Assembly (NCBI GenBank): GCA_016181175.1
Contig: JACOZV010000001.1
Span: 182,185 to 246,184, forward strand
Length of the DNA stretch: 64,000 bases
From: Candidatus Yanofskybacteria bacterium
Lineage (GTDB): Bacteria; Patescibacteriota; Minisyncoccia; 2-02-FULL-40-12; IGHO2-01-FULL-4-A
Direction: 5' to 3'
Of this stretch, positions 8,098-12,509 are shown piece after piece. Position 1 is the first letter of the stretch, and every line of letters begins with the position of its first letter. Under the pieces are notes generated by a model. The model did no database searches. It saw only the letters and a list, made by a program, of their open reading frames with translations, and was not told where the DNA came from. Position numbers and translations under genes: made by a program.

Positions 8098-8110
8098 TGT
8101 TTGAGCTGGC

Positions 8111-8119
8111 TTATCCACA
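8111..8119 (+). promoter_or_regulatory. DnaA-box consensus TTATCCACA
   Basis: Perfect 9-mer 14 nt after the stop of 4897..8097. A second copy lies at 8176..8184. Confidence 0.35.
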
Positions 8120-8175
8120 GATGGGACTTGTGGTGTTTTTTCAGGGATTTATAATGTATGTAAGTTAGTTATGAT

Positions 8176-8184
8176 TATCCACAC
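8176..8184 (+). promoter_or_regulatory. DnaA-box consensus TTATCCACA
   Basis: Perfect 9-mer, same orientation as the 8111 copy. Confidence 0.35.
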
Positions 8185-8253
8185 TTGGCAATTGTGCCGA
8201 TGTTGTAATCTGTTAGAATTAAAGAGTATTTGATAAAGGCCGAAGATGCTTAT

Positions 8254-8282
8254 TGACTTGAGTTTAATGGGTTGCTAAGATG
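8254..8282 (+). promoter_or_regulatory. candidate sigma70 promoter (TTGACT-17-TAAGAT) upstream of the giant surface-protein gene
   Basis: -35 ttgact at 8254..8259, 17-nt spacer, -10 taagat at 8277..8282. It would give a leader of about 440 nt. Confidence 0.3.
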
Positions 8283-8416
8283 ATTATGCAACCTGTTTAA
8301 TAGGCACAATAAAGGCTTAAATTAGCAGAAATAACAGGAAAAATATGATATTTTTGAATAATTACGCAACCGTTTTGGATTAACCATTTTGGTTGCTTTG
8401 TTGTTTTTGTGGGTTA

Positions 8417-8733: not shown

Positions 8734-11700
8734 ATGAGTAAAGCTATGACTTATAGCGATACCACTAAAGTGGTTGTCGCGATAGCAACAGCGATGTTGC
8801 TCGTCGTAGGTCTGGTTTACTTCATTGGTGTTCGTAACACCTTTGCGGTGGCCCCCTCCGACTATGGATTGAAGGAAGGCGACACAATTAGCGCCGCCGG
8901 TTCCGACGACCCAGACGTGTACATTGTAAATGACTGGGGTTACAAGAGATTATTCTTGAACCCCGCGATCTTCAATCTTTACGGTCACCTAGGCGGATTT
9001 GCGGCGGTGAAGAGTGTGTCTCCGGCAACGAGAGATGCCTTCGTAACTTCCGGCTTATTCCGAGTTGACGGAGATGAAAAGGTCTACGGTTTAGAAACGA
9101 CAGGAGAGGACACAGCCGTTCTCCGATGGGTTAATACATCAGGAGCACAGGCGGTTGCCGATGATCCAAATTTCTTCAAGAAAGTTTTCATCATCAACGC
9201 TGCTGAAAAAGCCCTCTATACCATGGGAACTGACTTTACTTCTGTAACTCAGGTTCCTGCATATACAAGAGGCGGTTCAGTAACTCCGGTTGCAACCGGT
9301 CCATTAACTGTTAGCTTGTCTCCGTCCAACCCGCCAGCCCAAACCATCACCATAAATTCTTATGGTATGACGGTTATGGCTTTAAGATTCAGCGGGAGTG
9401 GTACCGTCAATGAATTAACTCTAAAGAGAGGCGGCGCGGGTGCCGTTGGCGACTACGATAACTTATATGTCTATGATGGTGTCCGACGCTTAACTGGCGG
9501 CAGATCACCGTCTTCATCTGATGGTACGGTTACGTTTATCAGCTTGGGTGTTGCGGTTAGCGGGACCAAAGATTTACTTATAGTTGCTGATCACTCCGGT
9601 GTTGCTGGTAATGTCAACAATTGGACATTGACCAATGTTGGAGCTTCAGGAACTGTCAGTGGCTATCCTTTAACCAGCAATAATTTCCAAATTTCCGGAT
9701 CTAACTCAGGAACCCTGACTGTTTCAAAGAGCGGTTCAGTTTCAAATCCAAAAGTTGGCCAAAAGAACGCCATACTTTCGGAATTCAAGATTGAAACAGC
9801 CACGGAAGCCTCGGTGCTTAAGAGAATGCAGTTGCTTAATGGTGGCAGTACGAAGTCAGCCGATCTTACCAATCTTCGCTTAGAAGTCAGCGGTGCTAAA
9901 GTTGCTGATGGTTATATGTCCGGTGACGGTTATGCCGTATTTGACTTCGGTTCCGGTTATACTATTACCAAGGGCGACAGTAAGATATTTACGATGTATG
10001 GTGATGTTGCCAGCAAGAAAGACGAGACCATTAAGTTCTACCTTGAATATGCTTCTGATATTTACGGTTGGGGCGATCAGTATGGCCAAGGAATGAAAGC
10101 AACAATCACCGCGTTTGACACTTCTGCTTCAACTGAATCTCATAACCTTACATTGGAAGGTGGCGTGTTGACTATTACCTTTAACGGTCCTAGCGCGACC
10201 AATGTTAGCACGACAACTACCGATAGTGTTTTGGCCAAGTATACTTTTACAGCCGCCGCAAACATTGAGGTTAAGAAATTGGGGTTGGTTATTTGTTGGG
10301 ATAATGATGGAAACGGCTTTAATGATGCCGCCGATACAACAAACGGTGTCGGAGACTTAGAAGATATTAAAATAACCGATGAAGATTCTGGACAAGTTAT
10401 TGTCGGTCCAGCCGATGGTTCTGCCTTTACCACAAGCGAAGCGACCGGCTGTCCGGATTCTGCAACAGGCGCGAGTAAGATATTCACTGATACGTTTGAT
10501 TTGTTAGCCGGCAAGCCGAGGAATTTCAAGGTTACTGCCGATGTTAAATCGGCCAATACTAATTCCAGCACAGCTACTTTGGGCGCTGCCGACATCATAA
10601 AGGTTGTCCTTGACGGTTATGGTGAAGCAGATTTGGCTACTACCGCAGGCGATATCGGTGTTATGAAATACAGCGGAACAAGCACGGCGGTTGATGATTC
10701 GGACATTTCTCCAAATACAGACTTATCGGGTAATAATATGACGCTTCAGGCATCTACGTTAACCCTCGGATTGTCATCTTCACCGAAGAGTGCGACAAGC
10801 GTGAAGGGAACCAAAGATGTTGAAGTTGTAGCGTTTTCATTTGCCGCATCACTGGCTTCTGCTATCAAGGTTACCGACATTACCCTAACCGGATATGTTG
10901 ATGACGCCAGCGTTAGCTTTGATGTGGGTGTTTCTTCCGGCTCTGATGCCAACTTGTCAGTAGGTAATTTGGTTTCAGCCGTGAAGTTATATGACGGAAA
11001 TACCGGAACATTGATTTCCGCCACCCCGTATAGCAACCAGCTAAACAACTCTACCGGTACGATTAAGTTCAACAATTTGAACTGGACAATTCCGGCTGGT
11101 CAGACGAATAAATTATTGGTGAAGGCAGACCTTTCATCCAATGCCACTTCAGGTTCAGGAACGGATTACTTCACCTTTGATATCAATGCCACTTCTGATG
11201 TGACTGGTATTGACGACAGAAGCACAACGGTTAATTCGGGTAATGCAGATCCGAACAATGCTGGTGCTCCTACCGTTTTTGCGGGAGTTGCAAACAGCGG
11301 AACTATTGTTGCGGCTCTAGCTCCAGCTAATCCGATTACCGAAGCCAAGTATTGGGGTCAGACAGATACGGAGTTTACTCGTATCAGGTTAAGATCAACC
11401 AAAGAAGCATTCCAGGTTGAAAGATTGAATTTCTACAACCTTACTGCCAATACGGCGACTGCTTCAACCAACAACATTGATAAGGTTAGGCTCACATACA
11501 CCAACAAGGCTGGTACTACTTTGACGGCGGTTGGTTCGCTTAATACAAGCACACTACCGTCCGTGTCATTCGGATTTACCGGTGATAACAGGCCATACAT
11601 ACCAAAGGATTCAAGCACTGATATCATTGTAAGAGCCGACATGAAGACTAAGGCGCAGGGTGCTACATCTGAAGTTAACTTCGCGCTTAGCTTCTCAGGC

Positions 11701-12336
11701 GGCGCCGCAGATGAGTTCCGAGCTGTTGGTGAAGGTTCAGGTTCATTGATTGAAGGCAATACTGGCACTAGCACGATCGCTGATCTTAGCGGGAATAGCA
11801 TGTATGTCTACAGAGTATTCCCGAAGGTTGAACAGTTGACATTAGCTGCCAGCGAACCTCTGGGTACTAAGGATACGTTGAAGTTTAAGATTACCGCGAT
11901 GGGTCTGTCAGATTCAAAGATATTATTTGACGACCCCACTTCCACATCCTTGGCGTTTGAGGTGGTCGCTTCCGGTGGTGCTGATCAGGCGCTATGGCAT
12001 TACTTGTATGATATGGATACCGGAGAATTGGTAGCCAGCATTCAAGATACCCCGGATTCAATTCAATTAACTCCAGCGCAAAACGCTTCTGTCACCTTCG
12101 ACAACTGGGAGAAAGACGTTGAAATTCAAGGTGGCCAATCCAAGTCATTCAGAATTGAAACGGCTTTCCAGAACTTACTTGACAAGTCAGATTACTACCA
12201 GCTTATCCTTAGGGATGATGCTAGCGTAATCAAATATGTTGATGGTGCCCGCTCAAATGAAGATCAAGAGATTACGAACACCGCAGGCGTGTTCAAACTC
12301 TTGCCAATGAACGGACCTATCTTCGTCAAGCAGTAA
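8734..12336 (+). CDS. giant Thr/Ser/Gly/Ala-rich cell-surface protein (S-layer / adhesin candidate)
   Basis: 1200 aa. N-terminal TM anchor, then a low-complexity beta-rich sequence with only 2 Cys. Its GC content and codon bias are clearly higher than the neighbouring genes. A strong terminator lies downstream. Confidence 0.6.
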   Translation: MSKAMTYSDTTKVVVAIATAMLLVVGLVYFIGVRNTFAVAPSDYGLKEGDTISAAGSDDPDVYIVNDWGYKRLFLNPAIFNLYGHLGGFAAVKSVSPATRDAFVTSGLFRVDGDEKVYGLETTGEDTAVLRWVNTSGAQAVADDPNFFKKVFIINAAEKALYTMGTDFTSVTQVPAYTRGGSVTPVATGPLTVSLSPSNPPAQTITINSYGMTVMALRFSGSGTVNELTLKRGGAGAVGDYDNLYVYDGVRRLTGGRSPSSSDGTVTFISLGVAVSGTKDLLIVADHSGVAGNVNNWTLTNVGASGTVSGYPLTSNNFQISGSNSGTLTVSKSGSVSNPKVGQKNAILSEFKIETATEASVLKRMQLLNGGSTKSADLTNLRLEVSGAKVADGYMSGDGYAVFDFGSGYTITKGDSKIFTMYGDVASKKDETIKFYLEYASDIYGWGDQYGQGMKATITAFDTSASTESHNLTLEGGVLTITFNGPSATNVSTTTTDSVLAKYTFTAAANIEVKKLGLVICWDNDGNGFNDAADTTNGVGDLEDIKITDEDSGQVIVGPADGSAFTTSEATGCPDSATGASKIFTDTFDLLAGKPRNFKVTADVKSANTNSSTATLGAADIIKVVLDGYGEADLATTAGDIGVMKYSGTSTAVDDSDISPNTDLSGNNMTLQASTLTLGLSSSPKSATSVKGTKDVEVVAFSFAASLASAIKVTDITLTGYVDDASVSFDVGVSSGSDANLSVGNLVSAVKLYDGNTGTLISATPYSNQLNNSTGTIKFNNLNWTIPAGQTNKLLVKADLSSNATSGSGTDYFTFDINATSDVTGIDDRSTTVNSGNADPNNAGAPTVFAGVANSGTIVAALAPANPITEAKYWGQTDTEFTRIRLRSTKEAFQVERLNFYNLTANTATASTNNIDKVRLTYTNKAGTTLTAVGSLNTSTLPSVSFGFTGDNRPYIPKDSSTDIIVRADMKTKAQGATSEVNFALSFSGGAADEFRAVGEGSGSLIEGNTGTSTIADLSGNSMYVYRVFPKVEQLTLAASEPLGTKDTLKFKITAMGLSDSKILFDDPTSTSLAFEVVASGGADQALWHYLYDMDTGELVASIQDTPDSIQLTPAQNASVTFDNWEKDVEIQGGQSKSFRIETAFQNLLDKSDYYQLILRDDASVIKYVDGARSNEDQEITNTAGVFKLLPMNGPIFVKQ

Positions 12337-12351
12337 ACTCTAGTTAAGTCC

Positions 12352-12434
12352 CGATTTTGTCCAAATCTTCGATTTGGTTACAAAATCGAGGATCCTCGAT
12401 TTGTCCCGATGCCGAAGGCATCGTGGACAAATCG
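12352..12434 (+). other. two tandem nested stem-loops sharing the CGATTT(T)GTCC motif downstream of the surface-protein gene
   Basis: cgattttgt-ccaaatc-ttc-gatttgg-tt-acaaaatcg and cgatttgtcc-cgatgcc-gaa-ggcatcg-t-ggacaaatcg. Confidence 0.55.
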
Positions 12435-12477
12435 GGACATCCGGTTTACCTGACCTTGCAGCAGGGTTTGACCGGGT

Positions 12478-12509
12478 AACCAAAAACCGCTTTCGGGCGG
12501 TTTTTGGTT
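12478..12509 (+). terminator. rho-independent terminator (13-bp stem aaccaaaaaccgc / gcggtttttggtt)
   Basis: Long GC-containing stem with a T-run on the 3' side. A-run on the 5' side, so it could act in both directions. Confidence 0.7.

Follow-up and report, generated by a model that had tools for sequence, protein, structure and literature searches.

The 64,000-nucleotide (nt) stretch of Candidatus Yanofskybacteria DNA analyzed here (the window; contig JACOZV010000001.1, positions 182,185 to 246,184) contains, as its longest gene, an open reading frame (ORF) at 8734..12336 that encodes a protein of 1200 amino acids (aa), put forward in an initial annotation as a surface-layer (S-layer) candidate. 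Our analysis supports this candidacy, which we now regard with good confidence as correct. The support comes from the swapping of SLH and PG_binding_1 modules among orthologues, six beta-sandwich domains, a length kept near 1200 aa and synteny with PMT and TPR genes, and further from a match to a family described in a preprint, a codon bias found orthologue-wide, and a conserved leader and 3' hairpin plus terminator. It is likely, taking both parts together, that the gene encodes the principal S-layer protein of the ultra-small Candidatus Yanofskybacteria cell and is served by a conserved control region of its own. As a protein it is no novelty: its family has already been proposed as the patescibacterial S-layer protein. 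What appears to be new is the regulatory architecture, in which promoters with phased DnaA boxes recur phylum-wide and an rRNA-type boxA stands in the leader of a structural gene. The gene, its control elements and the conserved neighbors described below all lie on the plus strand.

What kind of protein is this? A Candidatus Yanofskybacteria metagenome-assembled genome (MAG) encodes a hypothetical protein to which the window protein is 100% identical; homologues at E ≤ 1e-3 number 378, of which the 120 listed are mostly full-length (~1190-1250 aa), show 46-84% identity, and belong to Yanofskybacteria, Taylorbacteria, Parcubacteria and Paceibacterota. An exhaustive search with the single protein reached 1,753 clusters (50% identity) at E ≤ 1e-3 and 581 at E ≤ 1e-30, and a scan of species-representative genomes extended the family to Falkowbacteria, Jorgensenbacteria and Peregrinibacteria. 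The Thr/Ser-rich composition and near absence of Cys reported earlier are both borne out, with Thr plus Ser at 21%, Gly at 9.7%, Ala at 9.8% and two Cys in all; C521 and C573 are invariant. A Pfam search of the protein matched no family, including no SLH (PF00395) repeats, and a PDB sequence search returned chance matches to antibody chains alone (E ≥ 0.28).

The chain divides into a signal peptide (aa 1-38), an N-terminal module (aa 39-186) and six beta-sandwich domains (aa 189-325, 326-475, 476-671, 672-854, 855-1029 and 1030-1200). The N-terminal hydrophobic segment, previously taken to be transmembrane, is better read as a cleavable Sec signal peptide than as a membrane anchor, having a K/R n-region and a hydrophobic helix (aa 13-32), with a small-x-Ala site, which reads TFA in this protein, directly before the conserved mature start (V)APSDYGL. 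The module that follows, of ~145 aa, is exchangeable among orthologues: many carry PG_binding_1, a Peregrinibacteria orthologue (L083) has three SLH domains in its place (E 1e-38), and others have modules of the GDLIKG...YYVG.DGKRYVFPN type or an NBR1-like immunoglobulin-like (Ig) domain. Wall-binding modules are thus swapped in front of a conserved body, which is the design of wall-anchored S-layer proteins. The AlphaFold2 model of the protein (predicted local distance difference test score, pLDDT, 82) has an all-beta body, whose six divergent domains are mutually linked by hhalign profile comparison at 56-93% probability; Ig-like or beta-sandwich repeats are what the initial annotation had proposed to look for by structure prediction. 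The multi-Ig proteins matched by Foldseek include SbsB and, at E 6.6e-12, the Haloferax S-layer protein 7ptp, and neither the model, Foldseek nor profile comparison revealed an enzyme fold in the body. One point weighs against wall anchoring in this particular protein, namely that its own module (aa 39-186) has no recognized wall-binding domain and was modelled poorly (pLDDT 35-70). One MAG (CAYIXQ01) encodes two paralogues of the S-layer protein, 63% and 48% identical to the query (loci L011 and L026), each with its own DnaA-box promoter and boxA leader.

We envisage that Sec would export the protein and the signal peptide would be removed, that the N-terminal module, found where orthologues have PG_binding_1 or SLH, would hold it on the cell wall, and that the six beta-sandwich domains would assemble into a lattice. 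The same chain might instead serve as a wall-anchored adhesin or fibril by which an episymbiont attaches to its host, forming no lattice at all, an explanation we consider improbable. Adhesins usually evolve fast and differ in the number of their repeats, whereas this family keeps a length of ~1200 aa and a fixed order of six domains across genera at 46-84% identity; moreover, one orthologue has SLH domains, and glycosylation genes are syntenic neighbors of the locus. A structure-based screen of a Nealsonbacteria genome has yielded a predicted patescibacterial six-Ig-domain S-layer protein (bioRxiv 10.1101/2024.05.28.596244), with examples of 1131-1274 aa (A0A1G2EN61, 1131 aa; GMX59286.1, 1185 aa), very numerous homologues across classes and confident AlphaFold2-multimer predictions of a hexameric, hexagonal-pyramid lattice, and these predictions for the family likewise speak against an adhesin and for the S-layer assignment. 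By the same preprint's account, homologues rank in the top five of secreted proteins by transcription in two Paceibacteria, and a metatranscriptome paper reports that those highly transcribed secreted proteins carry PG-binding domains. According to reviews, S-layers have been seen on some Patescibacteria; earlier patescibacterial genome papers could not name the S-layer protein.

Gene composition sets the locus apart as well. Of the window's 50 ORFs that reach 150 aa, this gene is the richest in G+C (0.463; the rest span roughly 0.36-0.45), in agreement with the earlier remark that it is G+C-richer than its neighbors; about half of the excess arises through amino-acid composition (G+C 0.468 at second codon positions) and part through the third position (0.446). 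Its synonymous codon distance, 1.197, is the largest in the window, and this deviation is the more telling because the longest gene has the least sampling noise. The initial annotation had named GGT, ACT, GTT and GCT as favored codons. That holds for GGT (0.49 vs 0.33) and GTT (0.55 vs 0.45), but not for ACT (0.29 vs 0.28) and GCT (0.28 vs 0.27), which are abundant because Thr and Ala are abundant; the strongest shifts are those of AAG (0.68 vs 0.26), CAG (0.58 vs 0.34) and GGG (0.03 vs 0.13). This bias, which orthologues share, and the high expression of relatives are indirect signs that the present product, too, may be highly abundant.

High G+C and unusual codons could mark a recently transferred gene rather than a highly expressed one, the case that the initial annotation had itself held to count against its reading. 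The gene does combine the window's top G+C with its most deviant codon use, and an IS200/IS605-type Y1 transposase lies a few kilobases upstream in some relatives. We nevertheless give recent transfer almost no credence. These gene-specific shifts are shared by the orthologues of six other genomes, with G+C 5-11 points above that of their own neighbor genes, AAG preferred (0.41-0.72 vs 0.22-0.31) and GGG likewise avoided, and the recurrence of the anomaly argues for selection on the gene and not recent transfer. Orthologues also keep their synteny, down to conservation of the non-coding leader, and the half of the G+C excess that stems from amino-acid composition does not call for a foreign origin. 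The transposase gene stands two genes upstream of the S-layer gene and at the same place in three relatives (L001:2049-2720, L002:690-1361 and L005:2003-2671).

Upstream of the gene lies a gap of 636 nt (8098..8733), which is, as had been noted, the longest in the window between ORFs of at least 150 aa. In every relative fetched, 600-1100 nt before the S-layer gene are likewise free of genes, and blocks of conserved upstream DNA can be recognized even in the comparison with a locus whose protein shows just 46% identity. Rfam found no family at gathering score anywhere in the window, and its matches across 8050-8800 are at chance level (E ≥ 0.7). Three candidate promoters open the region. P1 (8111..8155) consists of a TTATCCACA box at 8111-8119, a -35-like TTGTGG at 8128-8133 and a -10 TATAAT at 8150-8155, all invariant or nearly so in five aligned loci that include the one with the 46%-identical protein. 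P2 (8175..8219) repeats the arrangement with a second TTATCCACA box at 8175-8183, TTGTGC at 8192-8197 and TGn-TAGAAT at 8211-8219; it is conserved in relatives and, as read from its letters, has the same 30-nt phasing as P1, and the two tandem units explain a 22-nt direct repeat made of the box plus TTGTG. P3 (8253..8281) is the TTGACT-17-TAAGAT promoter that had been picked out before, here seen to carry an upstream TG extension, and an equivalent TTGACx-17-TAnnAT is present in other clades. To judge by these sequences, one or more of P1, P2 and P3 would feed the leader.

The two perfect boxes at 8111 and 8175, recognized earlier as DnaA-box 9-mers and conserved across loci, belong to a much broader pattern. 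The window holds six perfect copies of TTATCCACA where 0.49 are expected, a number reached in 0 of 100 shuffles, and 75 perfect copies fall in 99.9 kb upstream of S-layer genes as compared with 17 in the remaining 535 kb of locus sequence. Aligned on the box, these sites read TTATCCACA, 8-9 nt, TTGTxx, 16-17 nt, TATAAT; a near-consensus -10 starts 30-33 nt after the box in 58 of 123 cases, over a background of ~1 per offset, and in P1 and P2 the perfect box, at about -53 to -45, keeps a fixed phase relative to the -10. In loci of the PG-binding type the first promoter is flanked by two boxes 56 nt apart, one direct and the other inverted. A strictly phased promoter element identical to the DnaA-box consensus is conserved upstream of the S-layer gene throughout the phylum.

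What binds this element? A factor seated at TTATCCACA would be placed to touch RNA polymerase, and DnaA is the obvious candidate, the 9-mer being the near-universal DnaA-box consensus; in Escherichia coli, DnaA boxes are found just upstream of the -35 of nrdAB. Six perfect boxes in 64 kb are too many for a typical small DnaA regulon, however, and the box occurs at promoters in both orientations, being inverted at 20971 and 24096. Both points weigh against DnaA, and the frequency together with the double orientation allows for a different factor or a general promoter element. On such an account the match to the DnaA consensus would be a coincidence, three of the six copies stand at other envelope-gene promoters, and the strict distance to the -10 is what an element contacting RNA polymerase would be expected to show; its weak spots are the identity with the consensus and the nrdAB precedent. 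We put a non-DnaA factor or general upstream element only a little short of an even chance, and DnaA itself, judged from the sequence pattern, as a possibility to be held tentatively.

A third use of the boxes, as part of a replication origin or DnaA-titrating locus unrelated to transcription, is very improbable. Perfect boxes are conserved upstream of the S-layer gene, as it would require, but there are only one or two per locus, short of the cluster sought for oriC, and every one keeps a distance of 30-33 nt to a -10; box-promoter units of this kind also stand before other genes of the window, the cumulative GC skew rises monotonically with no switch, and neither dnaA nor dnaN appears in the Pfam-annotated lists of the fetched loci, which show surface-protein and glycosylation genes instead, the window's own neighbors being annotated in part. 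A hairpin plus T-run at 8115-8133, possibly a terminator of the upstream gene, overlaps the first box; locus L006 has lost the hairpin and kept the 9-mer, which makes the 9-mer the conserved element.

Two further box-promoter units of the window deserve mention. The inverted TTATCCACA at 20971 (20971-21026) lies 29 nt upstream of a -10, TATAAT at 21009, which is itself ~9 nt before the ATG of a Thr/Ser-rich secreted protein with an SH3 domain, an arrangement suggesting a near-leaderless mRNA. The one at 24096 (24096-24140), also 29 nt upstream, precedes TAAAAT at 24134, a small membrane ORF and then a 1009-aa protein with 46 Cys; the gap around it (24095-24531) is the second-longest in the window and holds an unlisted ORF of ~75 codons with a hydrophobic N-terminus (24257-24483). 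These inverted-box units may form a regulon of envelope genes.

The second unusual component of the control region is a hairpin followed by a boxA-like motif. The perfect 11-bp hairpin noted in the initial annotation (8417-8427/8443-8453) is the inner part of a longer one (8405..8465) with an outer stem at 8405-8413/8457-8465; this hairpin folds at -24.5 kcal/mol (z -4.4). Like the DnaA boxes, it had been listed without an explanation; the boxes can now be described as phased promoter elements and the hairpin as a boxB-like structure in front of boxA. In most loci a long single hairpin ends a few nt before the motif, its sequence unrelated from locus to locus, and folding of the 68 nt just upstream of boxA is far better than that of shuffles (z below -1.5) in 40 of 44 loci, the mean z being -4.3. 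The motif itself, GAAGGAACGTTGAAAACTGAATAA followed by GTTGC, lies at 8468..8498 (motif copy 8468-8492), and its general form, G(G/A)ACnTTGAAAA(y)T(r)AATAA, is found as a single copy, 150-430 nt from the ATG, in the upstream regions of 47 of 83 loci.

This motif resembles the boxA of Gram-positive rRNA leaders, a likeness that prompted a metagenome scan for the 20-nt pattern GRACNTTGAAAAYTNRATAA, which returned at least 80 loci. Sixteen of the 80 listed loci have the pattern directly adjoining rRNA genes confirmed with Rfam, in sense orientation in 15; it precedes the 5' end of 16S by 31-111 nt or, in the 16S-23S spacer, precedes 23S by 90-200 nt, and these are the two classical boxA positions. 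In about a dozen more of the listed matches the sequence ends no more than 150 nt from the motif, as is usual for assemblies that reach an rRNA operon. Three of the rRNA matches (L158, L162 and L140) are Paceibacterales-like and have insertions of ~1 kb in 16S or 23S, which are typical of the Candidate Phyla Radiation (CPR); in L140, tRNAs and a group II intron fragment lie in addition between 16S and 23S. The protein that flanks L162 is 73% identical to one of Candidatus Paceibacterales, and the 16S leader of L162 reads GAAGAACATTGAAAATTGAATAA...AGAGTTGC, 31 nt before the 16S start, where the S-layer leader has GAAGGAACGTTGAAAACTGAATAA...AAGTTGC, so that the match to the L162 boxA takes in the flanking GAAG and the downstream GTTGC. 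No rRNA gene was found within the fetched loci of S-layer homologues, and no S-layer homologue in the 80 metagenome loci listed for GRACNTTGAAAAYTNRATAA. In its letters, then, the leader motif is identical to the boxA of rRNA leaders and spacers. A full-text literature search for the boxA sequence gave nothing useful.

BoxA recruits NusB/NusE, and its action is not confined to rRNA operons: at suhB and CRISPR arrays it controls termination in untranslated RNA (PMC5725501, PMC7665894). We give somewhat better than an even chance to the prediction that boxA in the S-layer leader also recruits Nus factors; the nascent boxA would then bring in NusB/NusE and make the polymerase resistant to termination across both the untranslated leader (~260 nt) and the gene (3.6 kb). 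One circumstance tells against this, since boxA lies downstream of a candidate attenuator terminator (described below) and cannot help the polymerase to read through it. The motif might also be the site of some other RNA- or DNA-binding protein, or the relic of a duplicated rRNA leader. Its TTGAAA does resemble a -35 hexamer, and copies in Firmicute-like metagenome contigs stand just upstream of RNase Y genes, so that the motif is used in several contexts. We think such alternatives unlikely, as the motif is single-copy, constrained in position, paired with a boxB-like hairpin in 40 of 44 loci, and matched to a 16S-leader boxA of the same class, Paceibacterales, in its flanks as well as its core. 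A role of TTGAAA as a -35 hexamer was rejected, there being no conserved -10 at 16-18 nt in 44 aligned loci.

Recruitment of Nus factors thus stays our preferred reading of the S-layer boxA, and a few other occurrences of the motif may be recorded beside it. A second boxA-like motif in the window, GGGACGTTGAAAATGAAT at 53990 (53946-54031), follows a TTGACT-17-TATATT promoter-like site by ~18 nt and precedes by ~25 nt the GTG start of a HAD-family hydrolase (54029..54601), near genes of sugar modification (a DegT aminotransferase at 54657 on the minus strand and a SIS-domain protein at 56031); loose boxA matches are expected by chance at ~1.8 per window. The RNase Y (rny) copies (L087, L105, L146 and ~8 similar loci from human-gut and other metagenomes) stand ~20 nt upstream of the rny ribosome-binding site, and rny may be a Nus-regulated target. 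Finally, boxA occurs 44 nt before the gene of a 1274-aa, Cys-rich secreted protein on an unrelated metagenome contig (L143:261-4130), in which tblastn detected no similarity to the S-layer family.

Between the promoters and the boxB-like hairpin, the window's clade has an additional device. A leader stem-loop (8288..8340), in which CCTGTT (8292-8297) pairs with AACAGG (8333-8338) around AGGC/GCCT, ends in a Shine-Dalgarno (SD)-like AGGA (8336-8339); by the pairing read from the alignment it is conserved in ~10 loci, with CCCT/AGGG variants. The AGGA stands 5 nt upstream of a 12-codon mini-ORF (8345..8383), a candidate leader peptide with the sequence MIFLNNYATVLD before its stop, which runs into an intrinsic-terminator-like hairpin, GCAACCG...GGTTGC plus a U-run (8366..8409; hairpin 8366-8396, U-run to 8409). 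The last six codons of the mini-ORF cover the 5' arm and loop of this hairpin, a structure read from sequence and nearly invariant in ~10 loci. ATG, length and in-frame stop of the mini-ORF are kept in 8 of 10 loci, L048 having no stop. The whole arrangement of stem, SD-like AGGA, mini-ORF and terminator is confined to the window's clade, at ~10 distinct loci. We tentatively suggest, at rather less than even confidence, that mini-ORF and terminator form an attenuator of the coupling type, in which translation of the mini-ORF would mask the terminator hairpin and permit read-through. It counts against this suggestion that in L006, the most distant locus to have the mini-ORF, a frameshift reduces it to eight codons.

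Downstream of boxA, the leader folds into two further conserved structures. A structured domain at 8544..8643 is closed by a long-range helix (8544-8551/8636-8643) that encloses GGUCGAG (8557-8563) and a hairpin (8579-8606) with the loop yGGUCGAAnA; 79% of cells pair in register compared with 29-55% when the strands are slid, and the helix varies as GGGTC/GACCC, GAGTC/GACTC and GAATT/GATTC. GGUCGA(G/A) occurs twice in the leader, single-stranded at 8557-8563 and in the conserved hairpin loop at 8588-8594, and could be a protein-binding or tertiary-contact motif. The second structure is a hairpin before the AUG (8680..8717; loop GGUCucuAGAC) with 13 pairs, nine of which show compensatory changes; 90.1% of its positions pair as against 43-53% in slid controls, and its covariation score was reached by 0 of 500 shuffles. 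An A/U-rich stretch with no obvious SD separates it from the AUG. Covariation in these helices shows that the DNA acts as RNA and that the long leader is real, in keeping with the long 5' leader of the initial annotation, whose gene-free extent is conserved in relatives. The folded domain and the pre-AUG hairpin might stabilize the mRNA, take part in its processing or control initiation.

The transcript ends as elaborately as it begins. RNA from 12334-12525 folds at -95.4 kcal/mol (z = -10.2), which agrees with the structured 3' end and the 13-bp-stem terminator that had been described there. Within it, a 3' hairpin CCGGT..CCTG..CAGG..ACCGG (12440..12478) stands just before an intrinsic terminator (12478..12515) whose 13-bp stem is perfect (12478-12490/12497-12509); the hairpin has equivalents in L002, L003, L005 and L007, a GC-rich terminator is found at the same place in every relative examined, and together they might protect the 3' end. 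The nested stem-loops sharing CGATTT(T)GTCC are present too, at 12348..12439 and including GAGGATCCTCGAT, but are a lineage-specific insert of the type of repetitive extragenic palindromes or miniature inverted-repeat transposable elements (REP/MITE-like) rather than a conserved feature of the gene: most relatives have none at the 3' end, and L001 carries a similar copy as an insertion in its 5' leader. Their appearance is that of a small mobile repeat and not of an element of the conserved design. Palindromic repeat families of this REP/MITE-like kind (..CCCGATTTTGT..GAGGATCCTCGAT.. and AGAGGTTGAACCTCT) recur at different intergenic positions in related genomes, with sites at 12348-12439 in the window, at about 7925-7990 in L001, and in upstream and downstream regions of L001 and L002.

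The neighboring genes were compared across seven loci obtained by exact protein look-up. A secreted protein with LTD and PQQ beta-propeller domains is encoded upstream (4897..8097) and is a conserved neighbor in 6/7 of them; two small genes downstream (12543..13980) are syntenic in 7/7 and encode proteins of 211 and 266 aa that each have an N-terminal hydrophobic segment, are Ser/Thr/Pro-rich and have no Pfam match. A PMT_2/PMT-family membrane glycosyltransferase and a TPR protein follow (13950..17422), candidate genes for S-layer O-glycosylation, and PMT/PMT_2 glycosyltransferases and/or TPR proteins recur downstream in most of the seven loci where the contig is long enough. Such neighbors fit O-glycosylation of a Thr/Ser-rich surface protein, and the adjacent PMT-family transferases probably act on this one. 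The window contains no tRNA or tmRNA genes.

Taken as a whole, the arrangement suggests that the gene sits in a dedicated, high-output expression cassette. Its order would be three tandem sigma-70-type promoters, mini-ORF and terminator, hairpin and boxA, folded leader, gene, and 3' hairpin with terminator, which resembles the control region of an rRNA operon attached to a structural gene. In the literature we found no prior description of phased DnaA-box promoters combined with a boxB-like hairpin and boxA, an attenuator and structured ends for S-layer genes. The boldest version of this idea, that Patescibacteria wire S-layer and envelope synthesis both to DnaA, through the phased box at about -50, and to the rRNA antitermination complex, through the boxB-like hairpin and boxA, is one we regard as doubtful. 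If true, envelope production would keep pace with replication and ribosome synthesis in cells whose conventional regulators are very few, giving minimal cells a simple tie of envelope synthesis to growth. If the elements work as we propose, processive antitermination by Nus factors would extend to an S-layer gene.

CPR bacteria, or Patescibacteria, account for a large share of bacterial diversity, yet they are almost uncultured and their envelopes are poorly understood. For them, the swapping of SLH and PG-binding modules, the synteny with glycosyltransferases and the conserved codon bias provide independent genomic evidence for an S-layer protein predicted from structure, and the control elements supply short sequences for binding assays and search patterns for regulons in thousands of MAGs.

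How do protein and control region compare with known systems? A close counterpart is the preprint's six-Ig family (bioRxiv 10.1101/2024.05.28.596244), which shares with the window protein its phylum, size, signal peptide, six Ig-like or beta-sandwich domains, wide spread and PG-binding variants, a likeness established by description and not by accession match. The one Yanofskybacteria genome of the preprint is reported to have no six-domain protein, whereas the present Yanofskybacteria MAG has one, and the preprint does not treat gene regulation. The SLH-anchored S-layer proteins of Bacillota (SbsB, Sap and EA1) resemble this family in placing an N-terminal wall-anchor module before beta-sandwich assembly domains; SbsB is among the Foldseek matches, and the Peregrinibacteria orthologue L083 has three SLH domains. 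The window protein differs from them in having no SLH domain and a putative anchor module of no recognized family. In Haloferax volcanii, the S-layer protein csg is a glycosylated lattice protein. Like the window protein it is a chain of six Ig-like domains (PDB 7ptp), but it is archaeal, has a C-terminal lipid or membrane anchor and is ~12% identical, which amounts to architectural resemblance and not demonstrable homology.

On the regulatory side, promoters under DnaA control (E. coli dnaA p1/p2 and nrdAB; the Bacillus subtilis regulon) also have perfect 9-mers flanking or preceding tandem promoters; by comparison with E. coli dnaA and nrdAB, the boxes described here are strictly phased at about -50, attend a surface-protein gene phylum-wide and are far commoner in the genome. 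The candidate attenuator recalls the pyrBI type of E. coli in that a short ORF, preceded by an SD, extends into an intrinsic terminator, and departs from it in having 12 codons only, no obvious regulatory codons, a single clade and a function that is purely putative. The rRNA antitermination leader (boxB-boxA-boxC, served by NusA/B/E/G, SuhB and S4) shares with the S-layer leader its tandem promoters, hairpin and boxA; no boxC is defined in the S-layer leader, where Nus binding is a prediction. The S-layer case further differs from rRNA and suhB in that the target encodes the S-layer protein and boxA lies 150-430 nt from the start codon, as opposed to within 50 nt at suhB. As proposed for the S-layer leader, the known targets of boxA beyond rRNA (PMC5725501, PMC7665894) likewise carry it in RNA that is not translated, where it controls termination.

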